Origin: Psammoneis japonica
Taxonomy: Eukaryota
NCBI GenBank assembly: GCA_008632985.1
Contig: QPGO01000009.1
Coordinates: 372,001 to 436,000 of the forward strand
Direction: 5' to 3'
DNA length: 64,000 bases
Shown here: piece after piece, positions 1 through 64,000 of the stretch
How positions within the stretch are numbered: position 1 is the first letter of the stretch
Layout of the letters: each line of letters begins with the position of its first letter
Notes under the pieces: model-generated
Seen by the model: only the letters and a program-made list of their open reading frames with translations
Told to the model about the DNA's origin: nothing
The model's database searches: none
Position numbers and translations under genes: made by a program

Positions 1-61
1 CACGCACAAGAGGCTCATGCACGGTCTCGCCGTGTTGTCCAGCAGCGAGGCATGCTGCACA
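1..61 (-). repeat. G1 3' LTR (partial)
   Basis: Near-identical to 4790-4850; starts TGTGCAGCATG on the minus strand. Confidence 0.9.
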
Positions 62-70
62 CTCCCCCAT
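62..70 (-). promoter_or_regulatory. G1 polypurine tract (ATGGGGGAG)
   Basis: Purine run immediately 5' of the 3' LTR on the minus strand. Confidence 0.75.
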
Positions 71-98
71 GATCAGGGCCGTCAAGTGACAGGATGTC

Positions 99-3098
99 TC
101 ACTGGTGATGGGGTGCAATCTGCCGTAGATTGCACGCATCTGTCAGCACTCCGTTCTGGACACGCAACGTGCCGTTGTCACATGCACGGACAACTCTGGC
201 GGGTCTTGCACAGCTGTCAGAACTGCATTTAGAGGATTGTTCCTGTTTGACAAGTGCCAATTGCCCTGCGGCACATTGACACTCCTTGCATTTCTGATTT
301 TCACGCTTGTTGTTTAAGTGGACAAGCTTCTGCTTTCTGGTTTCTATGTGCTTCCACTTGGCATGATGGGCAATGGATGAAACCGCATCGCGTCCGAAGA
401 CCAATTGCACGGGACTTGCACGCGTGGTCGTGTGTGCCACAGCTCTGGCAGCGAAGGCTGCTGCGGAGAGGATGCCACTCCATGGGTCATCTTTGTCCAG
501 TTCCACATCCTGCACTGAAAAGGAACGCACCATGTCACCAAGTGTCTGGTGCACACGTTCCACTGTGGCATTTGCCTGTGGACTCCGCTCACTTGTGGGT
601 TTCTTCAAAATCCCACAGTCATTTTTAATCATCTGGCTGAATTCTGCCACAAATTCTGTCCCACGGTCATGAGCCACCTGGGTTGGCCATGGACATCTGC
701 ATGGCCACGTTTGTTCCACGACGTTTGCTGCGACGTCTGCGCGTTTCGCAGACACTTCTTTAATCTCGAACCACCCGGTTGCTGGGTCAATCATTGTAAC
801 TGCCCACAATTGCAAGGTGTCCTTTCCGCGTCTTTGAATTTTATGTGGCCCTGTCACATCTGTGCACAGAGTCTCCCATGGAATTGTCTCTGCAACCTTT
901 TCTGGTGGCTTCCCATGACGCTGCGTTCGGCGTTTTGTCTTCTGGCATCGACCGCACTTGACGCACGTAGAATGCACCGTAGACCTCACACCAGGCCAAC
1001 AGAAGTGCTGGGCAACAGACATTTCCGTGCGTGTCTCACCTGGATGACACAGTGTCTCGTGGTGCCATTCAGTTAGCGGAACCTGCAATGACTGTGGTGC
1101 TGCGATTTTGTCCTTGTGACAGACCAACTGTCGTGATGACCCTCCCCCACGATGCGCGCGAATGGAGCAGTCGGACAAGTCCTCAGCTCTTGAGAGCAGG
1201 CGCTTGTCCTTTTGTTGTGCTTTTTGAATGCGCTTGAAGCTGACAGGCAGAGACAGCTCATCTTGCGCGTCTGCATTAAAAGCTTCATGCAAAGGACGAC
1301 TCGATGGAGTGTCTTTTGCATCTGGATTAGCTTCGGAAGGCAAGCTGGGTGCCAGTCGAAGGCGACTGAGAGCGTCAGCGACCAGGTCATGGGTGCCCTT
1401 AACACAGCGTGATTCGGGACCGCATTCTTTGCATGTTGACCGCCAGCGCATGACGCGCTCGGCATTGAATGCTTTGCACGTAAGATTTTTATGATCAGTG
1501 TGTGTAATTGTACGATGACCAAGGAGAATCGTTCGAAATTCTTTCAATGTCTCCACAATGGCAAGCAATTCTCTCTCCGTTGTTGCACAATTTAATTGCG
1601 CACTGTTGAGCTTTCTGCTGTAAAAGGCGACAGGTTTGTCATCTTGGGACACAACTGCTCCCAATTGACATTTAGAGGCATCGGCACGCATCTCAAAGGG
1701 TTTGTTAAAATCAGGATGTGATGACAAAACATCTTCCGACATCACCCGTTTAACAGTTTCGAACGCCTCGTCTTCAACGGACGTCCACTGCCACTTAACA
1801 GTCTCGCTTGCGAGTCGTGTCAGTGGAGCCAAGACTTCAGAACGTCTAATCCATGTGTCGCGGCAGCAGTTCACCATGCCAACAAATGAACATAGGTCGC
1901 GTTCATTGGCTGGGGTCGCGATTCGCTCAATGGCGTCGACTTTGTTGGGTGTTGGTCGCATTCCGTCTCTGTTGACCAGATGACCCAAGTGTTCTAATTG
2001 GGTTTGACAGAAGTGAGACTTGGTTGCGTTAACTTTTAGTCCTGCTTTCTGGACCCTCAACAAAACTTCTTCAAGTTTGTTGAGGTGATCTTCACAGGTG
2101 CCTTTCGTCACGATGAGAAGGTCATCCAAGTGCGTTCGAACGAACGACAGATCTTCAAACAAGCATGACATGCGTTCTTGGAAAATGTCTGGCGAGTTGC
2201 ATGATCCCATGGGCAACACCTGCATCTCATGCTTGCCCCACGGGAAGATGAGCGTGCAGAGCTTCTTGTTGTCAGCATCCAATCGGATGTGACAACAGCC
2301 CATGTTTAAATCCAGTGATGTAGCCCACACAAAGCCTTCGAGCTTAAGTGGCATGTCTTGGATGTGAGGAATCGGACAAGGCAATCGCTTGATCCGTTTG
2401 TTCAGCTCTCTGAAATCATTGACAAAGCGCACCGTCAAATCTTTCTTCGGCATGACAAATGATGGAGCTGCCCATTGGGATCGGTTGACGCATTTGAGAA
2501 CACCGACACGTGCCAGGCGTTCTACTTCTTTGCGCAGCGCAGCTTCGCACGCACGAGGCACTTTGTGCGGACGAGCGTGGTGTGGTTCTACACCCTCCTT
2601 GAGTTGGACATGGCAGGGTTCTCCCTTCCATTCTCCTGATGTCCCATCAAATGAGGACTCATGGCGTTTCAACAGTGCCAAAAGGTCGTTTTGTTGAACT
2701 GCAGAAAGTCCCGTTGCCCCTCGCGTCATGTCCTCGAGGCAGGCCGGCGCGCACTTGGCATCTGAAGTGCGCAAAATCCGGTCGGTTTCCGAAGACAAGG
2801 CTTCTGGATCTTGAAGATAGAAGGAGGTTTCCACCGTAGCATCTGCGTGCCTCATTGGCACTTCTCCATTGACCAATGGCCACTCCATCATCTGTTCAGA
2901 GAAGACAACATCAATGCCTTGCGTCTCCAGAATGTCACGTCCAACAATCACATCGCACTTGCCCAACTTTCCGTTGTGCACGTGGACGGCATGCTCAAGT
3001 TCTGCAGTTTCGGATAATTCTGGCAACCGAAATTTAACGGTGCAGTCGTTGGACGCACCAAACGAGCCTGCCACCGTAGTCCAGTTTGTCTCAGCCAT
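99..3098 (-). pseudogene. pol: G1 pol (protease C-terminal part, RT, RNase H, integrase); open frame but missense-ruined
   Basis: Motifs WAAPSF, DFRELN, LDLNMG, HLDD (for YxDD), DASK, ERELLAIVE, TDHKNL, HPG..RT, C..C, DRGTEF, ERVHQ; only 2 Tyr seen in 999 aa. Confidence 0.93.
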
Positions 3099-3107
3099 TG
3101 AATGGCT

Positions 3108-4355
3108 TCACAGACGTTTGCAGTGTCGACTGTCGAGCAGAGCACTGCTGGCACCACTGTCCAGCAGTGCCTCAACAGTTTGAGTCTTGCCCTTGCCATG
3201 TTTGGCATTCACAGCCACAAACAAGATTGGAGCAAGATGAGTCTTTTTAACTCGTTTGTGGGATTGGCCTGCAACACGTGTACGATGGCAATTCAGTTGT
3301 TCATTGACACATTCATCCAATGTGTTAAAGCTGCCTGCATTGTGTCGGCAAGTGTCCGAGTTTTCGGAATCACTTGAACTGAGGTCGCGGAAGTGACTGG
3401 TTTCCTCCTCGCGTGCCTTGCGCTTTTTCTGAGCGTTGGCAAAGAACTCCTCGACCTTCGATCCGATGAGAGCATTGATGTCTTCCTCATTCCGAGGTTT
3501 TGTGCCAGGCTCGCTGCCTTCGTTGCTGGAATGTCCAGTCTTGACACGTTTCACGTGGGTGTTCGGTTGGGTCGTGATCAATGACTCAGAATTGTCCGTT
3601 CTACGTCCCCGCTTGCGTGGGACCCTGGCATGTTGGTCGCGGTTACCTTCGGCAAGCTCGACCTGCTTGGTGCGCTCGCAGAACTGTGCAAATTCGGCGA
3701 CAGTGTGCGCCAACGGGTCAAAATTCTGCAGCGTCATGAACTTCTGCCATGCGTTCGGCACACCGCACTCGAACACATCGCACAGTTCGTCATTGGGCAA
3801 TGGTGCTGGTGTTTCTCCATCCTTCGTCACGGGTGGAAACTGAGAGACACAGCCGTTAATTTCAACAGCCCTCGCGACGCAGTCACGAGCAGAAACCTCT
3901 GCGGGCTTGCGCGTGAAGCGCCTCAGATGACGCTTCTGCAATGGTGCTGCCCCATGAGGGAAGATGCTTTCCTTTAGCTTCGCGACGCACACTGCGTGCG
4001 CAGCGTTGGTTTGGGATGCCTGCTTGTCAGCGGCATTGTCAAATGACGTCAGAGCATCGCCCTGCAGCAGGTCACGCATGAGGGCAAATTTCGCTGGCCC
4101 GGTCGTGATGTTTTGTCCTTTGTGCACGCGATCCACATTGCGCAGAAAGATTGGGAGTGTCTCGCATGTAGCCGTGGAAAGGTGCGGAATGCCCATCTCG
4201 TGCGTTGGACTGTCCGGATCAGTGGGGTTGTCATGCAGCTTGAACGTCTGGTGCTCGCCCTGCTGCAGCTCTTTCTTCTCCGGCCATGTGAACGGAATCG
4301 GCGGCTCAACCCGCTTCTTCATGGTCGTTTTAAGATTTGTCGGTCCCACCAACAT
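3108..4355 (-). pseudogene. gag: G1 gag plus N-terminal protease
   Basis: LLQGDAL and QKRHLRR match G2 gag; LLDSGAS protease motif; same frame as pol, separated by a single TGA at 3108-3110; no Tyr in 415 aa. Confidence 0.88.
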
Positions 4356-4421
4356 TTCGTAGTTTCGTTTCTGTAGATTTCGTCACCTTGCACAACATGC
4401 GGGAGCAACATTGCTGTGCCC

Positions 4422-4850
4422 TGTGCATGCACCAGGCGCTGAAAAAGAAGATGTGTTACGACTTTGTCGTTGTGAAAATTGTGAGCCAGTTTAGAGTAGA
4501 GAAAGTGGGATCGTGCGAATGGGGAATCTTGCCAAATCCCCATTCGTTCGCATTTGGATCGTGTCAAATCGATCGTGCGTTTGCATTGTGGATCGTGCGA
4601 ATCAAGCCATCATGCGCCATGCACGAGTGATGTCATCGTGTGGAATCACGCTGCCATCGTGGGCCAGACGACGGGCTAGTGTGCTTCACACGGACGCTCT
4701 CTTGGCATCCTTCTGGAATTGCCTGAGACCTAGAGCCACGCCCTCCTGTGGTCGTGCTTCCCAGGTGCGTGTTGACAATGCTGCGTTGCCACGTACAAGA
4801 GGCTCATGCACGGTCTCGCCGTGTTGTCCAGTGGCGAGGCATGCTGCACA
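4422..4850 (-). repeat. G1 5' LTR (~429 bp)
   Basis: Right end fixed by match to 1-61. Left end inferred from the TGTGCA...TGCACA terminal inverted repeat and from a 14-bp motif sitting the same distance from the LTR end as in G2. Confidence 0.75.
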
Positions 4851-6200
4851 TGGCTTGTGTGCCAAGCATGCCACATCTCATGGGCACATGTGCCCCCTTG
4901 ATTTTGGTTGCACTCAAAAATCCTGTGCTGTTGGTTGCATTCAATCAGGGTGCCACCCAGAACAGCCAGTTGTGAAATGGCATAATGACCACCTTTGCTC
5001 AAAACCCATGCACCACAGGCAATGCAAGCAGCCTTTTCCAAATGCTTTGCCGCTGGAGGGATGCACTCTCTGCTGTTGAAATGCTTCAAATGGGGGCAGA
5101 ACTCTCCAGCTGGAAGCAACTGTTGTGCAAACTAACTGCTTTTAAACTGCTTGGTGCACTGCCAATGCCCCACTGCAAACAACAACAGAGCACTCAGTCT
5201 CAGTCATTTTGTGGCACAGCCAGTTTCCAGTCACACTGCCAACCATGCTTGATTGGTGCTTGATCATCTTGTCAATGGCACGTGGCAGTTTGACACTTCA
5301 CACTTCCACAATGCTGATGCATGGGGCCACACCTTCCTCCCTTTGTTTGTTGCAGATCTCAGGTGGTGTTGCAATCATGCAATCACTTGCTCAAGGATGG
5401 TGTGCACATTTGGCCCTGCCTTTCAGTGCATCAACAGATGGTCCCCAAATGTCCACCATCCTGTCCACATCCTCTGGCACAATGGACAGATTCTTCACCT
5501 GATTGGAATGCAGGAGTCACTTGAAGTCCCCAACACTGGGTGTTCCAGCTTTGCAATGCAGCCCAAGTGCCAGCTTGGCATTTGTCACCTCCCTCTTGGA
5601 GTGACCCATGATGTTGTGCTTCACAGTTGGGAGAATGGCTCTCGATGCACTCTTGTGCTTCTTGCTTGTGTTCTTGGTGTGTTCTTTTTGAGCAGCATGC
5701 CAACTCTTGACTCTGCTCTTTGCAGACCCTTGACATGATTGAAGAAGTTCTGGCTGGGTGCAAGCATGCATGGCCCAATGTCATTTGCTTTAAATGCAAC
5801 AACTTGCTTGCCGCTCTTCTTGTCCAGTGGTTGGAACTCATCCACCACTCATTCTTTGGGCTTGGGATGTTTGCCTTTGCATGTTTTGATCCTGACTTCA
5901 CATCGCCCCATCCTGGCATGGTGCAATCCTCATCCAGGGTGTCCACTCCTGCACCCATGGACAGGTCAATCTTGATTTTTGCAGGCTGCACATTGTGCAC
6001 CAACCTCCAGCTTGCTGCCATCCTGAGGGTGGAACCATTGTCAAGAATGACCTCATTGGTCTCAATGCCCACACTGCTTGGTCTAGCTCATGCTTGTCTC
6101 TGGTCATTCATTGACTGGTTGCAACCCATGCCAAGCAGCTCCCCTCCTGCTCCGGGTCAAACAGTTTGATCTTTTTGATCTTTTGGCATTGATGCTCACA
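4851..6200 (-). mobile_element. Degenerate Ty1/Copia (CoDi-like) protease / pre-integrase remnant; may extend to ~7500
   Basis: VILDNGST protease-like motif; PTVKHNIMGHSKREV..AK..L...AG.PSVGDFK and EDVD...DIWGPSVDALKG resemble diatom Copia pre-integrase; depleted of both TpA and CpG. Confidence 0.7.
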
Positions 6201-7968
6201 CCATTGTCCACTGAAGAGTGACCATTGTCACTGCTGTGTCTCTTGTTTGTGTGTGACTTTGTCCCCACATGTCTGGCTTTCTTCTGGTCTGCAGATTTTC
6301 CTCTTGATGTCTTTGTGTGTTGCACTGCATGTGCTGCTGTTCCAGGTTGAAGGATGGAAATTCATCTCATGTTGGAAGAACTTGTTCTTGGTGTGGCCTT
6401 TGTCACCTCTTCCATGATGACCCTTGTGCTGGTCACAGCATCTTGCTTGCCTTCCACATTCTCTGCCACTCACAGTGCAGGTGTTGATGATCTCATGGTC
6501 TTCCAATGAAATTGCATGCTGTCACAAGAAGCAAATGGCTGCATGGAGTGAGCATTGAACTGGCAAGTCAATGTTGCCAAAAGGGAACCCCACAAGGCAT
6601 CCTGTGCTGCTTGTTGCACTTGCCTCAGTTGCTGTGTTGGCTGTGGTTTGCCTCAACATCAAATGTTGTGTGCACACTGCACAGATTGTTGAGTGTTGAT
6701 GGATGCCACTTGTCACTTTCAACAAACCAGATGATTCACTCTAAAGAGAGAGCAAAAAATGTTGGTGAGATTGCAACTGATGACAGAGAAGATCCTCTGA
6801 AGAACAGTCATGAACTTGCCACATCAGTGCTCAAAAGACACAACTTCATTTTGGGTCACATGTGGTGCCCCTCAAGCTGGATGCTCCAACAGGCATGTCC
6901 GGCCAGGGGATGACAGCACCTGCTTGTAAATGCAAGAACATGTGATGCTGCTTTCTCAGCGCAACCTCCTGTCAAGCCAATCCAAATAAAATTGAGAGCC
7001 TGAGATGCAAAGAGGGGCTTTGTGTGGTGAATGCATGCCAAGAAAGCTGCAGCCAGAGTTGCAGACATGCCACGCATGGTCAAACTTGGTTGAGATAAAA
7101 AGTGTGCAAAATGTCATCCTTGACAGAGCTCAATGTGCCTTGTACCACCATGCACAGCACTTGTTGCAGACAAGCCATTCTGGTGCCAGAGAAAGAAAGA
7201 GGAGAGCACCACAGATGTTTTGTGAGGAGATTGAGAGAGTGTGTCAAACAAGGAGCTCTGGGAAGAATCTGATGGACAACGTCTTTCTTCTCATGATGGA
7301 TGATCAGATGTCATTGAGGAAGTGACAGCAGAGCTCCAAGTTTCCTGAGTTCATCTGGATGTTTTTGAGCTGGCCTTAAAAAAAGGGCAGCAGAGGTTGG
7401 CTTCAACAAAGGCAAGATGTCCTCTTTGATGACATCTGAAGTTTGTCAGAGTCAATCTTGCCACTCTCCAGTTGATGAATCACTGTGAGATCTTTTTGCA
7501 TGCAAGGTCAGATTTGCTGCACATGCCACTCAAAGCAGCATGTTTGGCACCAAGATGATCTGTCTTGGCAAGGGTCTGCAGATTTGCTTCAGCCACTCTG
7601 CAAACACACAAGGCTGCAATCAAGAAGTCAAAATTGTGCCCTGGCCAGTTGATGACAATGGCGCTGCTCTCAAGAGTTTGGGTTTGTGCTTGACACTGCT
7701 TTCAAGAAGTTTTTGTGAAAGAGTCGGGTGGCATCATTTGGAGTCATGTCTGGGCCTTGCTGCTGCAGGCCCTTTTGGAAATTCAACAAGACAGCAAAAA
7801 TGCACATGGGAGGCTGGACACAGCAAACAAAGAAAAACTGATGTGCAATGTGATGCCCAATGATTCACTCCTTTGCTTGGTGAAAATTGCATTGAATGTG
7901 TGCTGTTGATTCTGACTTGTGTGTGCAAGGACCATCTCAACTCAAGGAGGAGACAGCAGGAGAAGCAA

Positions 7969-8037
7969 CTGTTGTTGTTGTTGTTGTTGTTGCTGCTGCT
8001 GCTGCTGTTGTTGCTGCTGTTGCTCCTGCTGTTGCTG
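7969..8037. repeat. (GTT/GCT)n trinucleotide microsatellite
   Basis: Directly visible. Confidence 0.9.
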
Positions 8038-9104
8038 CCAGCAAGCAGGATTTTTTGTGTGTCCTCAGAGGAAGTCTGTTGTGTTCTGATGTCACAGCCA
8101 TTGTGAATGAGCTTGAATTCTGCATTTTTTTATTTTTTTGTTTTTCATGATGATTCAAGGCTCAGTTGATTGTGTCAACCAAGCAAGACACACTGCTGGC
8201 ACCTCAAGAAGAAACACGTGCAGCTTCCACTGCACCACAATGCCAACTTCTTGGGACAAATCCTTCACTTCATGCAATTGTTCAGTGTCCATGCAAGTGA
8301 CAAACACTCGGTGGGTACAAAAATGATTTGTGTTCTGTGTGGCACATGGCTGCTCTTTGCAGCCAGTTGCGTTCTTGTTGCCAAGGGCAGTTGAAGGACA
8401 GAAAACTGCATCGGCAGATTTCAGTTGCATTCCCTCCATTGAGAACAGCACAAGTTTGGCAGAACAATGCGGTCAACCTGACTCAAGCTTTTGTTGCTTT
8501 TGTGTCAATCAACATGAATTGAGCAATGGCAAATCTGCAGTGATTGACACAAACAATGAAACATCTGGTGTGTGTGTGTGCGTGAGACCAAGTTTTACAG
8601 GTTTGCTGCTCATGTCAAAGAGACACCCAGTGTGAGAAAAGCAGCACCCAAGCTTTCTTGGGGTGGATCAGCTGAAAGAGACTGCAACAGCAGGGAGAAA
8701 GATGGGAACACCCTGGACCAGCTGGCATGCCTTGTGAGATCACTTTTCCTCCAGATGATCTGAGCATTTGGTGTTTGCCAACAACTGCTGCTGGTGTGCA
8801 TCACAGTGTGCAGATTCAGCAAGTGAGCAGTTTGGCTCCAGCCAATTGCTGTGCTCTCACTCCATTCAAATCTCCATGATGTTTCACCAAGTGCAATTTT
8901 TTTGCAAATTTCACTTGCAAAATTCAACGCTGGACAATGCTGAAGTGGCAGTTGTGTGCTGGCTGCATGAGCTCACTCAAATTTGCATGAGGTGAAAAGG
9001 TGGCAGTGTTGTCAGCACTTTCGAGCTGCTGTGGTGCACCACACATCATGTCTTTTTCACACAACAACACAGATGAGAGCACTGAGGACAAAAACTGCAA
9101 GTGA

Positions 9105-9855
9105 GTGGCCTGTTTTGCTTGGACTTTAGGAGATGTTTGCGCATGCTTGGCACACAGTTGGCCTTGAAGCAGCAGCAACATTGGTGCCAGAAACTTGGAC
9201 AGGCAACAGCAGCTGCATTGGTGGCATCTCCAACTTTTTTGCTTGTGCCATGGAAAATTGGATTAGAGCATTTGACAGAGCTGAGTGTGATGGTGATGAT
9301 GACAGTGGGCTGCTCAGAGTGACAACTTGCACCTGCTGTCAAATCTATGGATGTGCAAATGGCATGCCACCATGTGACATGGGCCCACCACTCTGGGCGC
9401 TGGAGGCAACAGCAGTGCTTTGAGCTCTTTCTTACAACAAAAGAAGCAAGAGAATGGCCCATTTTGAGTGAACTTTAGAGGCTTTGTTTGTGCATCTTGG
9501 CACACAGCTGTCCTTGAAATGACAGAAACATCAGCACCAGAGATTTGGACAGGCAACAAGCAGCAGCCTGCAGCCACATTGGCAGCATCTGCAACTGTGT
9601 GGCTTGCAACATGGAAAAATGGAATGGAGCATTGGCAGAGCCAAGTGTGGTGGTGATGATGGCAGCCAGCCAGCTCAAGTTGCTCACAGTGATTTGCATC
9701 TGTTGTCAAATTGTGAATGTGCAAATGGTGCACCGCAATGCATCCTTCCCCACAAGTCTTCTGCAGCTGCTCAGCAATGACTCACAACACACCTGAGGTT
9801 TGGACTGGTCCACTCTGGGTGTTGGAGGCAACAGCAGTGCTTTGTGCTCATTTTT
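9105..9855. repeat. Diverged tandem duplication, 2 copies of ~350-400 bp
   Basis: Shared blocks cttggcacacag, ttggacaggcaaca and ccactctggg..ggaggcaacagcagtgctttg in both copies. Confidence 0.8.
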
Positions 9856-10995
9856 TGTGTGCTGGGCTGATTTGAGCCTCAACAGCATGGTCCAATGATG
9901 CCACTGTGAACATGTCTTGAATGGCACATTGTTTGCTTGCATTTTTGTGGATGTTGCCCAGCAACAGTGGCTGTGTGGAGATTTGCAAAATCGCAGATGA
10001 CGCGAAGATCTTCAAATGCACACTTTGGCAGAACAGCAGCACCCCAACCAAGTCAAAGACTCAGCAGAAGATTTGGTTGGAGCAAAAAGAACTGGACCAA
10101 AATGGTTGCTTGTCTGTCAACGAGCACCTGCAATGACGAACAAGAGGGCCAAGACAAGAGACAAGAGGCTGACTGTGATGATTGCACGTGTTGTGGCTGC
10201 AAAAGCAGGGCTGTTTCTAAAGAAACTGTGCTTTGGGAAGCAATGTTTCCATTGGTCAAAATGGAGCCTTGCCAGTGCTGGCCAACACTCTTGCAGGCAG
10301 AGCGTGATGTGGAGATTGCTGTGGCTTGAGTTTTTGGACAAACAGTGCAGTGGCTGGCAGGAGGGTCAGGGCGTGCTCTCTTTGTCATCACCTTGACCAG
10401 TGACAGCAACCACAAGGGGGCAGGTTTGACTTGCTCAGGTCATGTGTGGCCACTTCATGAGACAGGGTGTGGCTTTGTCCCAATGAGGATGTGCCCCCTC
10501 CTGCACTTGGGCGAAGCAGGAGGATCTTGTTTTGCCAAGTTGAAATTTGTTTGGTTGCGGCAGCAAGAATGGGAAAGAGTGCTGGAGCTGCACTGGCTTG
10601 ACATCTGCCATGCGTCGTGCAGCTGTTGCAACTGACTCTAGCTGCTAGAGATGTCAGCAATGGAAATTGGTTGCAATGGCGGAAACAGCACCCCATCGGA
10701 AGCGCGATGTTCCTTGCCTGGTGGTGGTGAGAAACAAAAAAATCAAAATGCAAAGCTTCAGCATCATATAAAATCAAAACTGACAAAGCTGATTGAAATT
10801 TGAAAGAACGAATAAGATTTTGCAATGAGCGTCTGAGTTTTCGTGCGGACTTTTACCTACTGTACGGACAGTGTGTGTTGTTGTGAACAACGACCACTTT
10901 GGCTTCCTTCGGCGCAACCAAGACGACGGCAGCCTTTACAAACGCGAAGTCTCCGTATCTAGACCGGTTCCACTGAACTTGTAGCTGAATGAATC

Positions 10996-50820: not shown

Positions 50821-51199
50821 TGCAACATGCGTTGTCATGTGCGCATTGTGTGTGTGTGTCTGTGCATTGAATAAAAGCACATTTCAATCGCACGTCAATC
50901 GTGGGTTCGTACGAAGTGCAGATCAGTCACACAGAAGTGATTGGATGTCGAGAATCGCAAATGCAATCGTACGATGATGTTGACATCTCATGTGTCAACA
51001 TCAATCGCACCCGGACAATCTGTCATCACGATCACATTCTCCGAAAGGCCTTTTGTCTGTGGGAGCAGTGCAAAAGGTTTAGGCCATTGAGAACCCGTTC
51101 GGAGAAACCCAAAATGATTGCGCAGAAACAATTCTCACAATTTTCACTTTTTGAACTTCACTCTACTTTCGTTTGCACTCGTTCTTCGAGCACAGTGCA
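50821..51199 (+). repeat. G2 5' LTR
   Basis: Gap-free alignment to 55618-55996; TGCA termini. Confidence 0.95.
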
Positions 51200-51235
51200 T
51201 TGTGCATGCACACCACAGAAGGTAACAAGTTCAAG

Positions 51236-55300: not shown

Positions 55301-55591
55301 GACAGAGACATGATGTTTAACGTCCAACATGTCGCGGACTGGAAATTAATTCAGCAGCGAAAACAAGAAATCACAAATAAAAATGACGCTCGAGAGAATG
55401 CTCGACGCACTCCTTGCACGTGCAGAGCAGGAGAAAAGATGCTGCTCGAGAAAGACTCGCAAAAATTAGAACAGCCCCATGTTGGACCGCACGCAATGAC
55501 AACGGTGCATGCCAATGGCACAGCACAGATCAAACGCGGCAACGTTTTTGACACTGTCAACATTCGTCGAATGATGCCGTTTGACGACTGA
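52391..55591 (+). CDS. pol: G2 pol (PR-RT-RNaseH-IN), in frame with gag after a TGA
   Basis: LLDSGTS, WAAPTF, YIDD, YTDAS, TDHKNL, HPG..RT, CETC, VDLIGP, DRGSEF, VERAHQ. Confidence 0.95.
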   Translation, partial: LAPQEESCALLDIRKPRKRAKVIHTSPAVVACMSASSGEAKNEPLRILLDSGTSSTIILRKFTRKLRTKASATKLWETKGGLFMTDSRCKIQFSLPEFDKHKMIETTAHVDNSPSSSSRHDVIMGRDLMSSLGMTLDFSNEEIKWEDATTPVKNVDTLFDADVFKLIADHIEESHAVIGLNDRVNRILDSDCHAANLNNVTAAATHLTPEEQKQLNFLLKRFENLFDGSLGKWTGKPVDLKLKSGVSPHHAKPFPAPQALEATARKEVERLCKLKVLRKTNCSEWAAPTFIQPKKNGRVRFLSDFRELNKRLIRTPFPLPNIQDVLQKLEGFMYATSLDLNMGCCHIELTPHARRLCTIVMPWGKYEHCRLPMGICGAPDIFQEHMSELMAGLEFVRTYIDDTLCLAKSDFQDHLKKLETVFLRLEQAGLKVNAEKSFFAKPEVDYLGFHITRKGISPIPKKVEAIHAIATPKTRKELRRFIGMINYYRDMWPRRSHVLAPLAKLTSTQVKWQWTETEQKAFENMKRIISKDILLSYPNFNIPFEIYTDASNSQLGAVITQKNRPIAFYSRKLNGAQTRYTTTEKELLSIVETLKEFRNILFGQHINIYTDHKNLTHKNFTTDRVMRWRLIIEEYSPKIIYLEGKANIVADAISRLTIKKIEPMETLSTEELAEKVLPKSYDNVFPLNYKVLDYEQKRDKDILSQLSNKTFHTKTFRGGERDRLLICHKDKIVVPRTLQKAVIDWYHTYLLHPGINRTEETISQHLWWSTLREDIRKYVSRCETCQKFKKKHKKYGHLPPKCAESVPWERLCVDLIGPYKIRRKGKKKPLVLKCLTMIDPATGWFEVVEIPNKESMTVAGLLERTWLSRCPWPSSITCDRGSEFIGHQFREMVQDDCGIEVKPATARNPQANAIVERAHQALGNMLRTFDLQHTPLDAEDPFAGTLSAAAFAARSAHHATAQAAPGQLVFDRDMMFNVQHVADWKLIQQRKQEITNKNDARENARRTPCTCRAGEKMLLEKDSQKLEQPHVGPHAMTTVHANGTAQIKRGNVFDTVNIRRMMPFDD

Positions 55592-55606
55592 CTCTAATGT
55601 GCAATC

Positions 55607-55617
55607 AGGGAGGCGAA
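55607..55617 (+). promoter_or_regulatory. G2 polypurine tract (AGGGAGGCGAA)
   Basis: Directly precedes the 3' LTR. Confidence 0.75.
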
Positions 55618-55996
55618 TGCAACATGCGTTGTCATGTGCGCATTGCACATGTGCGTCCATGTGTTAAGTGAAAGCATGTTTCAATCGCACGTCAATCGTG
55701 GGTTCGTACGAAGTGCAGATCAGTCACACAGAAGTGATTGGATGTCGAGAATCGCAAATGCGATCGTGCGATGATGTTGACATCTCATGTGTCAATGTCA
55801 ATCGCATCCGGACAATCTGTCGTCACGATCACATTCTCCGAAAGGCCTTTTGTCTGCAGGAGCAGCACAAAAGGTTTGGGCCATTGAGAACCCGTTCGGA
55901 GAAACCCAAAATGATTGCGCAGAAATGATTCTCACAATTTTCACTTTTTGAACTTCACTCTACTTTCGTTTACACTCGTTCTTCGAGCACAGTGCA
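55618..55996 (+). repeat. G2 3' LTR
   Basis: Matches the 5' LTR; followed by the TSD. Confidence 0.95.
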
Positions 55997-56049
55997 ACCT
56001 GCCCACACTGGGCCCAGTGTGCCTGTCTGTCTTGTCCACATGGGAGTGT

Positions 56050-58100
56050 GCTCCCCAGATCAGATGGCTTGCATGCCGTGAGTGAAGCACCCAACCCACA
56101 GCCTTGGTGATGACATCTGCTGTGGGGTCAATGATGATGCCAGGAATGTGTCAAGTGACAGTTTTCCCTGCCTCCCACCAGTCTTGGATCACAGAATGTG
56201 AGTGTCCCATCAGAAGTTGATGGCTCATCACCTTGATGGCAGACTCATTGTCAATGTAAAGAGGAGCAGGCTCCCCATGCTGTGGAAGAAAGCCAAGTTC
56301 CTTGAGTGCAGAAAGTGCAGAAAAAGAGCCTGGTTTTGGCACCAGCAGTGCTTGCCAATGATTCTGCTTCTGCAGAGCTTGCAGCTGTGGTGAGCTGTGT
56401 CTTGAAATGATGTGCAGCAGTGCCACCAGAGAGAGTGCATGTGCAGCCTGCAGAGTTTGAGCATCATTGCTGGGAAAGGCAGGCAAGCTGGGGTCATCCT
56501 CAAGCCATTCAAAGTTGCAAAGAAGAAGGCCAGGATCACAACGTGGTTTTTTTGTGCACAGCTCCCAGTCTTTGGAACAATGCAGACAATTGGCAACACA
56601 TTTTAACAATGAACAGTGCATGTCAGCTGGAGGCTTGGAAAATTTGGACAATGTTGTGAGAGAGCATCCACCATCTAAATGGCAACAGGTGAGTGAAAAA
56701 ATCAACTCCCTCCTCACCAGAAGACATCAGCGCAAGAACCCATGTTCAGTCTGGAGAGCTGCACATTCCCCAGCAGCTGAAGGAGGTCCAGCAGATGAGA
56801 GATGGGAGCAGCCTCAAAATTTCAGTCTGACTCACCTGGAGATGGTGTGTTCCAACTGTGAGTTTGGAGAACATGCTCAGCCCAAATCCTGCAATTGATG
56901 GCAGTGGAGTCATCATCCCAGATGAAATGCAGTGCACCCACAAAGCCTTGTCAATGTGGCTGCAGCTGGCAATGGCCACAGCCTTGAACAAATGTGCAAG
57001 ACAGAAGGCATCAACCTGTCCCAGGAGAAGTCCCTTCATGTGCCAGAGCAGACAAATTTGTCATGGGCAACAGTGCAAAACAACTGCTTGAATCAGAAAA
57101 AACAGAGCTGGTGTGCTTTTCCCACAACACACCAGCTTCAGAATGTTCTTGGAGCACATGGAGAAAAGGAGGGACAAAAAATTTGTCCAACTTGATGCTG
57201 AGTCATTTCTCATGTCATGTCACATGCGAGTCATCAACAGAATGCACAGGATGTGTCAGTCTGGGAACATGCATGAGCACACTGTGAGCATTGCCAAAGA
57301 AGTTGCAATGGGACATGCCAGCACTCAGTGCAAAGAACAGGCACTGGGTGGATTGGCTCATGCAGGACAAGTGGGTCAACATTCAACTTGCACAAAGCAT
57401 GGAGAGCTGGCACTAATTTCTTTGACCGAACACCACATTGTTGGGGTCAATGCTCACCAGCAGGTTTGACAAGATGCTGCCAATGAGGGTGAGTGAGAAT
57501 GGCATCCTTTGGGTGCAAACCTCTGTGTGCTCAGCAAGCCCAAAGCAAAGCCCTTGCAATTTTGGCATGCAGGAGTGCCAGCTCTTTCACATCTGTCCTT
57601 TCTTTTGGGTTGTGGTGTTGACAATGTGCGAGAGCTTGGGAAACTCCTTTTCCAAGACAAATGGTTGCTCCCCTGGCTCTGGATTGTGCCTTGATGTGAT
57701 TTCAACATGAAAGCAGCAAGCAACCAAATCTTCAAAATGACACCCGTGCCCTCTGCTGCAAACACTGGCAATGATTCCTGTGGCCTTCCTCACTCATCAC
57801 CTGAATGACAAGGGCCCAAATTTCTGCTCACTGGTCCAAAGGTTTGCAGTGCAATGGGCCACTTTTTTGCCACACCACTTCTCATTTAAAGCATCAAGAA
57901 CAATGTTGTCAGACAATCTGCACTGAAAGCTGTGCAGCAGGGGTGGAGGAGAGCTGGGCCTGCTGCCACTGCCTCAGTTGCCAGCCCAAAGCCCCCCATC
58001 TTCACTTCAATGCCTTTTTGCTGTGCTTGTGCGCCTCTCATTGGACAGTGGGGTCCTTTGCCACACATTTGATGCCTTCCAAGCAAAAGCTGTGGCAAGC
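56050..58100 (-). mobile_element. Degenerate Ty1/Copia (CoDi-like) RT / RNase H remnant
   Basis: LLLGQVDAF (RQVDDF-like), ELIF..C.LD....TTLSKFS..P..H..LLK, PLYIDNESA, IQDW, HIPGI..ADVITK..GWVLH.RH C-terminus; right boundary approximate. Confidence 0.8.
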
Positions 58101-61039
58101 ATCATGGCTTGGATTGCCACAAGAGTGATGAGAGGAGGAGCCACATGTGTTGGTCACCACCGCGTGCTTGCTGGAGTTTTCTCAAAAATTGCAAAACCTC
58201 ATTTACGCGCTGCAGCTTGGCAAACAAAGCACTGCAAGCAATTGGAGACGGTGGCACAAAAGCCCTTGGACATGTGCTTTGAAAAATGGCACAATCGAAG
58301 TTTTGAGCGTGTCGCGACACCATTTTGGAGATGACGGGAAGGCGACCCTAGCAGCAGGTGGCGCGAAGCAAAATGTGAAGGTTAATCCTTCCCGTTTGTG
58401 GGATGACATTGGTGAGGAGCTAGTTTCTGAGATTTCAGATTGAAAGGGACCGTGAGCTGTTGCGGCGCATTTTGCTGTTGTTGCGTTGTGATTCCATTCC
58501 CGATGTTATTCGGTCCAGCGTGTTGGAACGGGTTGGCAACAACCCCAACCTCCGTTACCGCGTTATCAAGGCCAGACCAGATATTTTCAATAAATGAACG
58601 TTTTTCTCTTTACATGGCATTTGGAACAGCAGGTTTCGAGGAGTGTGGGATGTACGAACATCGTCACATCCATAGCTTCACTTGGTGTTTGTCATTTTTT
58701 GTAAACAACCTACAACGATTTAGTAAAACAAACCATGATGTATCTTTTTGTTTCTACCAAAGCCCAGTCTTCGTACCGGTACGGCGTAGGTGGTCTCTAG
58801 CAACCATTGGTCTATTCCTTCGTACGAACTATTCTCTCCTCCGACTTGACTCATTTGCGTTGCGTCTTGTTGTAGTCATTCTCGTTTAGTTGAAATACCT
58901 TTGCTCATCCTAAAGCGCAAAGGTACTTGCTTTTCTAGTGAGATGCTAAAATATACTGGGGTAGTTTCAAATAGAGACTACAAGTAGGCAATACAACCTA
59001 CTCAACGTGATCTGGGAAGACCAGGCGTTTACGGCTTGCATGACGCCAATCAACATGGGGCTACGAGAATAAAAAGAGGGTCTTTCGATTTTGTCGTTCT
59101 AATTTGTCGTCATGCCCAGTTTGTGCATACTTCGTTTGTGATCTACCAAAGATCGGTCACACACGAAATCATAACTTTAACATAAAAGCTGAAACAATTG
59201 CCCAAGGCGGATGGGATTTCCCTTGAGCACTGGCAAAAAGACTTCTTGGCCCTTCTGAGTATCGGCAAAGGAAACAAAGAGATTAGCCACCAATTGCATC
59301 ATGAATGCATCGTGCTGAAATCACGCAGGAGAGTCAGGGTGCTTTCGAGCCCGCCTTGTTCAAAGATTTGCTCCACGTAGTGTCGTCGTCGTCGTTTTGC
59401 GCTTCGATAGATCCACTACGAAATAATACGAGACGGTGGCAACAGTGATTGCTCTGTCCTTTTTGTTCTCGCAGAATCAAGCAGATATTGGGGAACACCG
59501 TCACCATCGCATCCATTCAACCGAATCACCTATCGGAGATATAGCACATCGCTACTCACTCTTTGTTGTTTTAGTTGCAACTAAGGAGGTAACTTTGGCA
59601 TTAGCGTTCTCCGTTCCAACGACAAGAATGCCTTGTCTGAACGGAGCGTCACCGAGGCGACACCAGAGCAACAAAACCATGGCTAGACTGTCCGACGGAT
59701 CGCATAGACTCAGCCGGCCATGTTGGATGATCCCACTTTATACTGAGACGAAAGGAGATTTTCTTTACAGTTCAAAAACCAAACGTGGCCCATTCTTGGG
59801 TTCCCCTGGTTCGCCGCGAACCTCCAAATACCAAAAGTTCAAACTTCCATGCCGAATCAGCCTCATATACATTTCCGGATGTATCACCTGGCGAACAAGA
59901 AGAGTTGTAGCCAACGTAACAATCGCCACAATTGCGGGAACTCGTGGATTGGCTGGCAAGATTACAATTGTAGTAGCTGCGGCGGCAGTTAGAGCGGCAA
60001 AGATTCCGAAAGAAACTACGAAAGCCTATAATTATGAGAGAAATATCGTAAAAGAGAAGAAAAGAGAATGAGCGACTTGTAAACAACGAGACGTGCGAGT
60101 ACACACAGTACGTAAGGCACTTGAAGCACACATCATCTTTTGCGGCGAACAATCCAAACAACAACATGCACCCATGCAAGTGACTCGACACTACAACAGC
60201 GGATTTGAATGGTCGTCGTCGTTGTTGTTCTTTGTCAAAATGCTGCGCAAGAAAGAACGCGATTGAGTTTTGAGTTTGGCTCTCATTGTACTGGGGACAC
60301 AAAGGCGCTGCAATTCACTAGCAGTAAGCTTGAACAATTTGTGAAAATGACAGAGATTCGCATCTTCTGTGTGCTGTCGGGGTTTTTAACAACGTTGGTT
60401 GTGCGACAACGGCGTTGGTGTGTTGCTCATGGTGAAATGAATCATAAATACCGGTAACATCGCTCACTTATGTTATCACCGCGGGTCGCGAGCTCGCGCT
60501 TCGCGCCCGCGTCAGCTTGACGTCATCACCAAAATTCCAAAAAATCAAAAATCGCAACATCCGATGATGATTCTCCCGACTTCCGACACACACTTTTTTG
60601 TTCTGCGGGTGTCGGGTGTTACAGTACAGCTGTTCTTGGTGTGATGTTGATGTTCTGTTTCAGAAGAGAAAATACTGTACTGCACTAAAACAGAACTCCT
60701 TTCGTTGCTCTTGTGTTTTATGGGAATCATGTGTTTTTTTGTCGAGTGTGGATGATTGTTGGAACACATGACATCGGGTGGACGCAAGTTGTGCAAACTT
60801 TCGTTTTGTTTGCTGCATCGTCGTTGTACTCCATGACGGGTCAGGACGTCATGTCCGGAACGAAACACCCACCACTTTTCCACTGGTCTCATGATTTGAC
60901 ATTTTGGGACTCACCTCCATGGGCAGCACCTTTCAGTTCGGCGAGGTCGCTCCCCGATGTCATTTGTCCCATTCAAGTGTGAACTGAGAGTTGCAGACCA
61001 GTGCACGTGATGCTTGTGATGGCTCTCATGGGAAAGAGG

Positions 61040-61794
61040 AAAGAAATGTCCTCTCAAGAAAAAAATGTGTCATTGTCGTCATGATTGTTGGCATTGTGGC
61101 GCTCTTCATGGGAGGGTGAGTGTCTCCGAGCAGGGCCCACGGAACAAACAACTCACCATCCGTCAGCTCCGTTGTTGTCATTGTCACATGGCTGCTTGCA
61201 CTAACACTGCATGCTCTCATTCCAGTCACGCATTTGTTCTACAGTGGAGACTCCATGTCGAGTGAAAAGAGTGATGGCAAAGATGTCTGTGGCTTGTCGT
61301 CTCAAATGTTTGGCATTTTGCTCTTGTTCGTCAGCATCTGCTTTGACGGTGGCACAGGTGCGTGCGAGGACAAGCTCCAAGCTCATGACCAGTGTCCATT
61401 CAATGTTCAATTGGGCAAAACCATCTTGGCCGGTGCGTCAATCCTTGCAGACCTGCTCAGTGAAGTTCGTGCCCTTTTGCAAACGGGCTTTTTGTTGGTG
61501 GCTCTCGGTTTGAGTGGTGCACTCAGACAAGTTTTTTTTGTTGCCATTGCCAAATTTGGGGCCCTGACGTGTTCCATCATTGGATTGGCACACAAGGTTG
61601 TTTTTTGTGGACATTCCTCGAGTGGGACTCAATTTTGCGGACTCGTCGTGAGTGTGTCTGCCATGGTTCTCACCTTTTTTGGACATCATCATAATCAACA
61701 ACGGCAGCAGCAGCAGACAACACCAGAGGATGAAGAAATGGAAAAGACACTTCCCGATGAACTGCGCCGATCATCCAAGCAGCAGCGATGTTGA
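61040..61794 (+). pseudogene. UAA-family nucleotide-sugar (UDP-galactose, SLC35B-like) transporter pseudogene
   Basis: GILLLFVSICFDGGTGACEDKL (AYEDKL expected) and IAKFGALTCSIIGLA; internal deletions; TpA-depleted. Confidence 0.75.
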
Positions 61795-63229
61795 GCAAGG
61801 TCTGCTTGCTGAGAGTGGAACAGAAAACAAGCATGGTGCTTCTCTCGTAGCATGACACACAGGCAACAATGGTGCGCTGTTTGACTTGTTGTGATGATTC
61901 GCAGCATGCTGATGCAAGCAGCGCGCCATTCATCATGATTTGTGAACCTCTCTAGAGTGTGATTCAAACACCGACAACCAGCTTTGTTTCCACGAATGCC
62001 ACCCCCATTGTCATTTGCTCCAACAGCAAGAATGGTTTCCAAGCGACTGAGAACACAGAAATGCCAAATTGACAATCTGCAGCTCGACCAATCGGTCTCT
62101 GCCCGAGATGGCTCCAGGATGAAATGACAATGCCGCATTCAAACAATCGAACCGATTCTGACCTTGTCCCATTGTTTGTCTTTTGATGGCAAGCTCCGAC
62201 AGCAACAATGACTGCCATGTCCGAGAGCCACACGGAAATCCAAATCGGTCACAATCGGCTTGTCCAGGAACATCTCTGGCGAGAGAAGAACCCAATGGTC
62301 CGAGGCAGAGTCGCATTCAAACAGAAAAGCACCACCAACACAGTCCACATGGTCATGTTTGTCATGTCTCCAATTGCAAGAATGAATCATCTCATCTCCG
62401 TTCAACATGAGGGACTTGCCAAAGTCACAAGCAACCTTTCGTCCAACCAATTCTTGGCCAGTGCCTGTCCATGATTGCTTGTGACTGGGTGGAAGGAGTG
62501 ACAGTGTCGACAGACAACAACCTTTGTTTGGAAACTTGGATGTCATCTGCCGACATCTCCATCATGCATCATTGGTCGTCTCTTTGTTGGTGTTTTTTTG
62601 AGAGCTGCCAATTGCTCACCATGGTGTTGCTCAGCTCACCACGTGCTCACCACGTCTGTCGGCCATCAGGTTCTCGGATGTTCCTGACCCCTCCTCCCCA
62701 CGGCCAGATGCAGTCTCAGTGCATTGTGCATTCAAACCTTTTCAGATTTGAATAAAAACATGAACCGCACCATGCATGTAAGACTCATCTTTGCTTGAGT
62801 GCACATGCTCCAGTGTTCGCGAGCACCGTGAAACCAACAAAAAAGCACGCATCAAGACAAGTCGCTGTCAACACCAACAAAACAACATGAGTCAACCATG
62901 ATGGTTTCAAAACATTCGTCTCCATCACCTTCCCCGATGCGTCGCCACTTTGTTCATTTGCCAATTCCTCCAGCACAACAGGTGATGTTGTTTGTGTGGC
63001 CGTCGCATGCCCACAACTGCCAAAATTAGAGCTTGTTTGTTGACATTTTGTTTCTCACGCTCCAGTGCCTGCCGCAGCTTCTGTCATGAATGAAAACGCT
63101 GTGGTTGCCTTTCCCATGACTGCCATGCCCTGTGCTGTTCCTGATGTGCCTGGTTCAAGAGATGATGAAGGTGCTTTGCCTCTCCTCAACCAGCCACCGA
63201 CAAAATTGTTTGCTGCAACTCAAGCTGTC

Positions 63230-63955
63230 TCTGGCACGCTCCAGCACCTCCCACAGTTGCCACAATGAATCCAATGCTGTCAGCGCCATTCAGGCAACTG
63301 CCACACCCTGCACTGTTCCTGCCACACGTCTTGCTGCAGGCAATGACGTTTCTATGGCTGTCGTGTTCCCAAAATGTCAAAAGTGCGATCGCACTGTCTC
63401 ACGCTCTATTTTGCCACGCTCCAGCGCCTCTAACAGGTGCCACAGTGAGTGCAATGCAGTCAGCACCAATCAGACCCCATGCTGTTCCTGCTGTGCGTGT
63501 TGCCACAGGTGGCAACGTTTCTATGGCTGTCATGTTCCCACAATGTCAAAAGTGCGATGTCACTCTCTCACGCTCTGTTTTGCCACGCTCCAGTGCCTCT
63601 AACAGGCGCCACAGTGAGTGCAATGCAGTCAGCACCATTCAGACCCCACGCTGTTCCTGCCACACGTGTTGCCACAGGCAATGACGTTTCTATGGCCATC
63701 ATGTTCCCACAATGTCAAAAGCACAATGTCACTCTCTCACGCTCTATTTTGCCACGCTGCAGCGCCTCCCACAGTTGCCACAATGGATGCAATGCCGTCA
63801 GCACCATTCAGACAACTGCCACACCCTGCGCTGTTCCTGCCATGCTTGTTGCAACAGGTGATGACGTTTCATGGCTGTCGCATTCCCATGACATCAAAAG
63901 TGTGATCGCACTGTCTCTCACGCTCTATGTTGCCATGCTCCAGCGCCTCCCACAG
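63230..63955. repeat. Tandem repeat, ~4 x 169-181 bp
   Basis: caatgc.gtcagc.cca..ctgttcctgc..acgtttc..tcaaaag..cact.tctc..cgctct..ttgcca.gct.cag.gcctc units starting near 63260, 63441, 63610 and 63779. Confidence 0.9.
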
Positions 63956-64000
63956 AGGATGAATCAACAGAAACGGGAACTGTGTGTCTTTGCACAGTGT

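Follow-up and report, generated by a model that had tools for sequence, protein, structure and literature searches.

A probable TpA-directed transition mutator acting on non-genic domains of a pennate diatom genome

Introduction

The subject of this work is a stretch of 64,000 nucleotides from the pennate diatom Psammoneis japonica (assembly GCA_008632985.1, contig QPGO01000009.1, forward-strand positions 372,001 to 436,000), here called the window, long parts of which have lost most of their TpA dinucleotides. The observations support a directional mutator that converts TpA to TpG or CpA in chromosomal DNA, hits both strands and is confined to non-genic, sharp-edged blocks, among which are two Ty3/gypsy retrotransposons, called here G1 and G2. 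Taken as the best explanation of the whole picture, it is in our view very probable that a process of the host performs this conversion inside delimited non-genic domains.

TpA depletion in the window

Over the window as a whole TpA is found at 0.30 of its expected frequency (observed/expected ratio, O/E) and CpG at 0.72, and TpG and CpA both reach 1.45. Segmentation of the whole window by a two-state Poisson model of TA counts in 200-bp bins gave seven depleted segments (1-1400, 2001-10600, 14401-21800, 35801-40000, 46001-52400, 55401-58200 and 60801-64000), which comprise 34,000 bp with a TA O/E of 0.05-0.18 and alternate with normal segments of 0.51-0.59; the 600 bp between the first two of them (1401-2000) are intermediate, with a TA O/E of 0.32. 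A preliminary description, made from the letters of the window, had listed TpA-poor regions whose coordinates deviate from these edges by a few hundred bases at most. The depleted segments hold 159 TA in 34,000 bases against 1089 in 29,400 bases of gene islands, a rate that predicts about 1259 in the depleted bases, and the Poisson probability of the deficit underflows to 0. Within each block the counts of TG and CA are similar to each other. The GC content of blocks is 0.48-0.50; gene islands have 0.46-0.49, and the pol segment of G2 has 0.45.

Direction of the change in G1

Both elements show the order of reverse transcriptase (RT), RNase H and integrase that is typical for Ty3/gypsy, and G2 possesses in addition long terminal repeats (LTRs) and a target duplication; the two are 64% identical in DNA. 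The LTRs of G1, which is truncated by the start of the window (Table 1), are not both within it. The extent of G1 was covered by tblastn with 156 gypsy relatives, and the Pfam domains RVT_1, RNase H, Integrase_H2C2 and rve were found in the element. About 82% of its TpA is missing and its CpG is kept, with 11.4 TA/kb versus 62.9 TA/kb in 79 relatives from metagenomes. These relatives, retained out of 429 loci and amounting to 387 kb, served as unmutated controls; their TpA O/E is 0.59-1.18 and none of them is TpA-depleted, so that low TpA is no trait of the element clade. The scarcity of tyrosine in G1, which the preliminary description had pointed out, was borne out by our count of two Tyr among the 1000 residues of pol and none among the 416 of gag.

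The direction of the change was read from an alignment of the G1 and G2 pol proteins with 17 outgroup gypsy polymerases obtained in an exhaustive profile search, a Tyr column being considered as conserved if at least 60% of the 17 outgroups have Tyr in it. At the 22 columns of this kind G1 has Cys 11 times, His nine times, Met and Ala once each, and Tyr not at all. Control columns are largely preserved in the same protein (Phe 16/20, Trp 10/11, Asp 21 of 25-26, Gly 25/28). Conserved Leu columns have turned into Ser five times and into Pro three times in G1, and never in G2, which is what TTA>TCA and CTA>CCA changes predict. Read on the sense strand, a replacement of Tyr by Cys is an A>G change and one by His a T>C change; the nearly equal counts thus indicate that both strands have been hit.

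The LTR pair and the mosaic of G2

LTRs of one insertion are identical at the time of integration, and since a 4-bp target duplication, ACCT, is present at both outer sides of the G2 LTRs, they belong to one insertion and were once identical. At present they differ at 28 of 379 sites (7.4%), by 28 transitions and no transversions. Sorted by pyrimidine-purine (YpR) step, the aligned columns include nine CA/TG, five TA/TG and two TA/TA pairs, along with 21 CG/CG, two CG/CA and one CG/TG pair. Accordingly 23 of the 28 mismatched positions fall into TA-derived columns; three of 24 CpG columns have changed, and outside the YpR columns there are two mismatches in 171 sites. A CA/TG doublet is the trace of an ancestral TA that was hit twice, independently, and CpG decay predicts about 0.05 doublets between the LTRs as against the nine seen. 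According to a hand calculation each LTR possessed about 24 ancestral TA, of which 80-85% were hit, compared to ~6% for CpG and ~0.6% for the remaining sites, and the LTR-derived rate at TpA is some 100-fold or more above that of ordinary sites. Because this divergence at TpA followed a shared insertion, the changes arose in the chromosome and after integration.

G2 is a mosaic. In its LTRs, in gag and at either end of pol about 80% of TpA has been mutated, and ramps of ~0.5-1.3 kb lead from them to an intact core, in which 7-11 TA per 100 bp are found at 53701-54900. The core (53700-54900) contains 77.5 TA/kb and 112.5 TG+CA/kb versus 12.3 and 176.7 in the flanks; CG amounts to 49 versus 53 per kb and the YpR sum to 239 versus 242. 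At the level of protein, the pol Tyr columns at amino acids 88, 160, 312, 313, 336, 838, 865, 979 and 1002 have become Cys or His, and Tyr is kept at amino acid 334 and at all conserved Tyr columns between 367 and 763, so that in the span from 334 to 763 only 336 has changed, to His. The gag-like protein has just three distant relatives of 30-34% identity and is unfit for polarising changes. The least depleted stretch of G1, that of TA O/E 0.32, is homologous to the RT/RNase H region which is intact in G2.

Further data on G2 come from contigs of a public run, X1, made of exact 31-letter words, with a depth of ~55-68 on single-copy DNA. Of two other runs, X2 covers parts of the window and X3 none of it, and no RNA data set was among the matches listed. 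The summed contig depth of the G2 internal region is 6400-10300 over its full length, which corresponds to ~100-170 copy equivalents. The mosaic may have resulted from spreading of the mutation from silenced flanks, from later gene conversion, or from assembly or polishing of a family of more than 100 copies into one sequence. A loose end at the start of the 3' LTR contains five TpA in 19 letters and suggests that unmutated LTR copies exist elsewhere in the genome. Among the joints in X1 contigs, 51076>55876 represents a solo-LTR form of G2, and 53228>54820 a derivative without most of the unmutated core; we compared the latter deletion with the core itself, and as the right edge fits while the left one is ~260 bp off, we draw no conclusion from it.

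Mass balance of pyrimidine-purine steps and loss of CpG

The sum of TA, CG, TG and CA is 237-259/kb across the blocks, 242/kb in gene islands and 235 +/- 9/kb in the 79 unmutated relatives, and TG+CA climbs from 113-144 to 177-238 per kb while TA and CG drop. Since a transition keeps a YpR step as YpR, the constant sum means that TA, plus CG in older blocks, became TG or CA. The remaining 12 dinucleotides are shifted by no more than 0.24 from their gene-island O/E. GC-biased gene conversion as a source of the pattern was ruled out, AA, AT and TT O/E being unchanged, and tandem repeats, as delimited by Tandem Repeats Finder, make too small a fraction of the sequence for the TG/CA excess. Taken together, the conserved Tyr columns of G1, the LTR pair and the constant YpR sum confirm the direction from TpA to TpG and CpA that the preliminary description had proposed, and its claim of an action on both strands holds in view of the balance of Cys and His in G1 and of the TG/CA doublets between the G2 LTRs.

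A feature that the preliminary description did not mention is that CpG is nearly absent too (O/E 0.05-0.15) in 4600-10000, 14500-16000, 18000-21000 and 55600-57700, and it is retained (O/E 0.6-1.0) in G1, the G2 flanks, 36000-39500 and 60800-64000. Over 12 kb of CpG-poor sequence the CG O/E is 0.15, every NCGN context is down to 0.08-0.33, TG and CA are up, and there is no flank preference comparable to that of TpA loss. The two types of loss are distributed differently over the blocks. Each 1-kb bin with a CpG O/E below 0.5 lies inside a TpA-depleted block or, in the case of bin 14001-15000, on its edge; young elements (G1 and the G2 flanks) have lost ~80% of TpA and almost no CpG. From the common domains and from young elements that are TpA-poor and CpG-rich, it follows that both processes are co-located and that the one acting on TpA is much faster. 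The CpG signature fits ordinary decay of 5-methylcytosine. Among the metagenome relatives, loci L025, L008, L018, L035, L058, L055 and L076 have a CpG O/E of 0.12-0.26 with normal TpA (0.59-0.92). Decay of CpG by itself is often met in hosts of this element clade, unlike loss of TpA.

Flanking-base preference

We expressed the density of surviving TA relative to the 387 kb of unmutated relatives for three sets, namely G1, the G2 flanks and the old blocks. Survival is 0 in all three for ATAT and likewise for ATAC/GTAT. It amounts, in the same order of sets, to 0.73, 0.58 and 0.14 for TTAA, to 0.23, 0.22 and 0.12 for CTAA/TTAG, and to 0.38, 0.23 and 0.07 for CTAC/GTAG. The ranking does not change when gene islands serve as reference. 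On the strand of the changed A, a 3' T or C is favoured and a 3' A disfavoured; an equivalent reading is that two bases 5' of it an A is favoured and a T disfavoured. Such dependence on context looks enzyme-like. It also makes Tyr codons (TAY) the most fully erased class, and TA at codon positions 1-2 is found twice in G1 and 21 times in G2.

Reading frames and protein damage

Conversion of TA to TG or CA yields TGA only from TAA, and so no new in-frame stop can arise, while TAA and TAG are removed. In 27.6 kb of blocks we counted 47 TAA, 29 TAG and 648 TGA, as compared to 231, 237 and 556 in 29.4 kb of islands. Stop-free frames of at least 120 codons are more frequent in old blocks (2.24 versus 1.53/kb). 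Many long open reading frames (ORFs) lie across one another, on either strand and in more than one frame, for instance at 46213-47238, 5434-6087 and 61120-61791; such overlaps are a consequence of the missing TAA and TAG, and gene callers would over-predict in the depleted blocks. As the process itself preserves open frames, the intact gag and pol frames of G1 are no evidence of function, and G1 is disabled through missense, also in the RT YxDD motif, to which the preliminary description had drawn attention.

Authenticity of the depleted sequence

An X1 contig of 1660 bp with a depth of 60.4 covers the depleted positions 55997-57656 with six differences, and another one covers 57687-58466 (780 bp) with one. 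The interval 56411-58198 has a summed depth of 64-100 and is single-copy at a likeness of at least 80%. Exact-word contigs at a depth of ~60 would point to accurate short reads, and the X1 contigs are a good but not independent support for the depleted sequence. The signature also exists outside this assembly, since among the 150 best representative relatives there are three, from ENA, JGI and NCBI assemblies, that are Tyr-free gypsy polymerase fragments (P0158, P0199 and P0220, on public contigs of 18250, 1207 and 2273 bp). They have Cys or His at 11/12, 9/9 and 14/16 conserved Tyr columns respectively, and the choice between Cys and His differs among the three at the same columns.

Genes and blocks of unassigned origin

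Positions of the features are collected in Table 1.

Table 1. Features of the window (positions count from its first nucleotide; a dot stands for no strand)
Feature	Position	Strand	Remarks
G1, Ty3/gypsy, cut by window start	63-4376	-	pol ORF 99-3098, gag ORF 3108-4355
Old block, TpA and CpG depleted	4400-10600	.	4600-10600: TA 3.8/kb, CG 8.5/kb, TG+CA 238/kb
MOV10-like RNA helicase	11192-12796 and 12824-14209	+	two adjacent ORFs (short intron or frameshift)
Old block, TpA and mostly CpG depleted	14401-21800	.	TA O/E 0.05, CG O/E 0.20; TA 3.5/kb, CG 11.4/kb
p300/CBP-type acetyltransferase (HAT_KAT11)	23330-27232	-	1300-aa intron-free ORF, bromodomain matches
TpA-only depleted block	35850-40250	.	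TA 5.5/kb, CG 49.8/kb; 0-3 TA per 100 bp
Ankyrin-like ORF (Ank)	35936-36580		Pfam match, inside the TpA-only depleted block
568-aa ORF with IQ-like repeats	39086-40792	-	3' two thirds inside the depleted block
Depleted block, partial CpG loss	46001-50365	.	TA 2.5/kb, CG 20.6/kb; ends at N gap
Assembly gap	50366-50521		156 N, 300 bp before the G2 5' LTR
G2, Ty3/gypsy	50821-55996	+	RVT_1, RNase H, Integrase_H2C2, rve (Pfam); LTRs
G2 5' LTR	50821-51199	+	379 bp, TG..CA ends, 92.6% identical to 3' LTR
G2 gag-like ORF, TpA-depleted	51173-52390	+	0-1 TA per 100 bp; 3 Tyr in 406 residues
G2 pol ORF, mosaic	52487-55591	+	both ends mutated, core intact
Unmutated G2 core	~53490-54900	+	RT C-terminus, RNase H, integrase start
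G2 3' LTR	55618-55996	+	379 bp, TG..CA ends
Old block, most TpA and CpG depleted, single-copy	55997-58200	.	TA 2.3/kb, CG 4.5/kb
TpA-depleted block, partial CpG loss	60801-64000	.	TA 5.3/kb, CG 36.9/kb

The genes for the MOV10-like helicase and the acetyltransferase lie outside the depleted blocks, whose edges are no wider than 200 bp and run close beside the genes. The best relatives of the helicase are 63-66% identical to it, those with names being from Asterionellopsis, Bacillariaceae, Amphora, Ditylum, Helicotheca and Thalassiosira; the acetyltransferase is 53-62% identical to its listed relatives (Asterionellopsis 61%, Grammatophora 59%, Mayamaea 57%, Fistulifera 55%, Cylindrotheca 53-54%). 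The best named relatives of the two proteins are all diatoms, mostly pennate, which makes the host a pennate diatom and not Bigelowiella. A protein atlas returned only generic helicase clusters for the MOV10-like ORF. Proteins of the MOV10 family participate in retroelement restriction in animals, and the gene of the window is situated in a 3.8-kb island flanked by two hypermutated blocks.

Concerning the content of the depleted blocks, 58 of their 60 long ORFs have no Pfam match, one is ankyrin-like, and one has a sub-threshold match to PGK, which we take as chance. In particular, no Pfam family was found in the 14 long ORFs of 4400-10600, where there is also no gypsy homology, nor in the long ORFs of 14401-21800, and none above the cut-off in 46001-50365. 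The tblastn search with the 156 gypsy-related proteins revealed nothing in the window beyond G1 and G2, which leaves ~27 kb of depleted sequence without retroelement homology. No tRNA genes are present in the window.

The TpA-only block at 35850-40250 has edges of ~100-200 bp and contains tandem arrays (38015-38325 and 38723-39173) and a local duplication, 37295-37544/39544-39794, of 79% identity. The second copy of this duplication is a part of the 568-aa ORF, for which we found no Pfam match and no usable protein-atlas match. The first ~180 codons of this ORF have normal composition, and its depleted part contains one Tyr in ~400 residues; it may be a host gene hit as collateral or a captured fragment. 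The block at 60801-64000 is few-copy in the genome (summed depth 180-530 versus ~55-68 for single-copy contigs). Tandem arrays of the depleted blocks include units of 169 bp (63313-63949), 240 bp (38723-39173) and 166 bp (38015-38325), whose copies differ chiefly by transitions, the older ones with many transversions. Older duplicate pairs (37295/39544, 9088/9437 and the 49.6-kb and 63-kb arrays) were tried as a source of polarised changes and rejected, because with many transversions they are too diverged for a clean reading. The gap of N directly follows a 182-bp tandem array (49710-50130), and its position beside the high-copy G2 indicates that the assembly is not seamless there.

Discussion

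We propose that TpA would be converted to TpG or CpA by A:T>G:C transitions on either strand of chromosomal DNA, and that the action would be limited to non-genic domains which harbour LTR retrotransposons and local duplications, along with old sequence that is no longer recognisable. Such a process would run near saturation, two orders of magnitude above other substitutions, with a preference for ATAT and ATAC/GTAT and with TTAA largely spared. It would inactivate proteins by missense, replacing Tyr by Cys or His and leaving the frames open, and a slower, ordinary CpG>TpG/CpA decay in the same domains would finally produce old blocks without TpA or CpG. As to chemistry, an enzyme that deaminates adenine in DNA, giving hypoxanthine, would be a logical candidate, and what licenses it may be the silent and methylated state of the chromatin and not repetition itself. 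The preliminary description had spoken of a repeat-targeted process; this part of it is weakened, since the core and the flanks of G2 are repeated alike and the core is nonetheless TpA-intact, and since the depleted interval 56411-58198 is single-copy.

Several observations weigh against our explanation or restrict it. An attack on A and an attack on the T paired with it are indistinguishable in sequence. None of the 79 relatives is depleted, their minimum being 0.59, which means that the process is not general to the hosts of the clade, and the unmutated core of G2, repeated like its flanks, is a misfit with simple repeat sensing. CTAC/GTAG sites survive in G1 (0.38) above what a one-parameter flank model gives. 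When 40 of 1248 variant rows are considered, the window has TG or CA versus TA in 16 and versus CG in 11, and the latter number shows how strong the part of CpG decay is among old copies. Some 23 kb of the depleted DNA is without recognisable origin, and its former TpA is deduced solely from the constant YpR sum. Finally, the platform of X1 is not on record, and X1 is possibly the assembly's own sample.

The closest rival turns on the first of these points. As TpA is self-complementary, all our counts fit T>C equally well, and a modified thymine (oxidised or hypermodified) with preference for TpA could mispair with G; in dinoflagellates 5-hydroxymethyluracil indeed stands in for T, with a preference for TpA. 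Transversions and indels would nevertheless be expected from excision repair of modified T, and the LTR spectrum is purely transitional (28:0), so we regard an attack on thymine as unlikely. A different doubt, already voiced in the preliminary description, concerns the sequence itself, namely that a modified base at TpA was miscalled as G or C in sequencing or polishing and that the DNA truly reads TA. The scaffold gap and the uncertain provenance of X1 leave some room for this artefact, to which, however, we give very little credence: X1 contigs of exact words match depleted single-copy DNA almost letter by letter, each site is TG or CA and never changed on both strands, the three Tyr-free relatives come from assemblies of three databases, and losses of CpG type and of TpA type differ in their distribution over blocks.

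Hypermutation of retroelements by deaminases is familiar from ADAR and APOBEC3 of animals, and one could imagine that an ADAR-like enzyme edits A to G in double-stranded retrotransposon RNA before integration, the edits being fixed by reverse transcription. Both G1 and G2 are retroelements and ADAR prefers a 5' U (10.64898/2026.01.13.699255, in the available text), which would agree with this scheme. ADAR and APOBEC3 act on RNA or nascent cDNA pre-integration, though, whereas the LTRs of one insertion differ here at TpA-derived positions and must have been changed afterwards; changes of sense A (Tyr>Cys) and of sense T (Tyr>His) are both present, depletion extends to DNA with no retroelement homology, and the preferred 3' flank of the A is T or C and not G. 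APOBEC, moreover, gives G>A/C>T in place of TpA>TpG/CpA, and ADAR is listed as metazoan-only in the part of the source available to us (PMC3239186). We therefore find RNA editing hard to believe. Least credible of all would be that no mutator exists and that the blocks have always been TpA-poor, as DNA of a low-TpA donor or under selection against UA/TA. A mild TpA deficit is met in most genomes, the gene islands of the window included, but the Tyr>Cys/His changes are polarised by outgroups, the LTRs diverged after insertion, the G2 core and flanks contrast at a constant YpR sum, and the relatives have ordinary TpA; selection would hardly be able to act on a single dead inserted copy.

Our preferred explanation, a mutator of the host acting on TpA in chromosomal DNA, finds its nearest parallel in Bigelowiella natans, and by this likeness of signature the kind of process has already been described, very recently. 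In mutation accumulation lines of this alga 231 of 302 nuclear mutations fell into integrated giant-virus and virophage regions; 230 of those 231 were A>G or T>C, all 230 at TpA, at a rate of ~6e-7 per site per generation (Mettrop et al., 10.64898/2026.01.13.699255). The same preprint describes, genome-wide, 124 clusters poor in TpA and rich in CpA+TpG, in which RT and DDE domains are enriched, and proposes an ADAT2-like deaminase as the mutator, citing DNA activity in amphioxus and Trypanosoma. The statement of the preliminary description that no system of this kind had been described is thereby superseded. Our own literature search, in which subscription journals are thinly covered, found no report from diatoms and no other TpA-directed hypermutation of genomic DNA besides that of B. 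natans.

Both cases have in common, according to the available text of the preprint, near-exclusive A>G/T>C at TpA with TpG and CpA as products and TpA-poor, CpA+TpG-rich domains. In B. natans the mutations are confined to foreign-derived regions at orders of magnitude over background; here a ratio of rates is derived from LTR divergence. The hosts are different, a stramenopile in our case and a rhizarian in the other, and so are the targets, which in the window are LTR retrotransposons together with local duplications and blocks of unassigned origin, and in B. natans a giant-virus/virophage insert. The depth differs as well, being near saturation here (TA O/E 0.05) versus 0.45 for the nucleocytoplasmic large DNA virus region of B. 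natans. Flank preference and co-located CpG decay are seen in our data, and the words 'context', 'flanking' and 'trinucleotide' are absent from the main text of the preprint. What the present analysis adds beyond B. natans is saturation, the flank hierarchy, the preservation of frames and the co-location with CpG decay.

Repeat-induced point mutation (RIP) of fungi is similar in being a transition hypermutation of transposon DNA in place, in sharp domains beside intact genes. RIP is C>T mainly at CpA, creating TpA and stops (PMC2621366), whereas the process seen here destroys TpA, does not lower GC and is unable to produce in-frame stops. Instead of the raised TpA/AT and stops that mark RIP, we observe removal of TpA and a fall of TAA/TAG from 231/237 to 47/29; instead of mutation over the whole repeated length, we find the G2 core unmutated, an assembly mosaic being possible there. 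In another diatom CpG methylation occupies blocks of repeats as long as 30 kb, between which lie gene-rich regions free of methylation (PMC5124317), and CpG decay of methylated repeats resembles the window in the CpG O/E of 0.05-0.15, the gain of TG/CA and the block layout, but it is unable to remove TpA.

With respect to a possible enzyme, stramenopile-only deaminase-SAM-Tudor proteins and a LmjF36.5940-like clade, both mentioned in the accessible part of a survey, may be considered as candidates, as leads only (PMC3239186). Enzymes of the TadA/ADAT2-ADAT3 type come to mind for another reason as well. These are tRNA adenosine deaminases that naturally act on A34, and as the invariant U33 precedes it, the target is a UA step; the flanks preferred here (A at -2, T or C at +1) have no obvious match to the anticodon-loop contexts known to us. 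One may go further and suggest, tentatively and with more doubt than conviction, that an old defence by DNA editing, guided by chromatin, is common to diatoms and chlorarachniophytes, a Tyr-erasing mirror image of RIP that would be licensed by CpG-methylated silence. Under this broader suggestion the deaminase may also speed up the loss of CpG, and the mosaic of G2 would represent the process advancing inward from silenced flanks.

Conclusions

For practical work on such genomes, long stop-free stretches that are not genes, and Tyr-free polymerases that look intact and are dead, mislead the annotation of genes and transposable elements. Dating by LTRs is misled too, since the 7.4% difference between the LTRs of G2 comes almost entirely from TpA. 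A candidate enzyme is provided with a set of properties to be matched: strand symmetry, a TpA specificity of at least ~100-fold, the flank hierarchy and sharp edges of action. Gene families that are common to lineages with the signature and absent from others offer a comparative handle on this enzyme.

Previously, TpA hypermutation of invading DNA had been reported, within the literature available to us, in one 2026 preprint and for one rhizarian alga. The diatom case indicates that the process is not confined to one species or to viral inserts and that it reaches ordinary LTR retrotransposons. Diatoms are among the most abundant marine algae, and they would constitute a second and ecologically major lineage in which TpA is erased from invading DNA.

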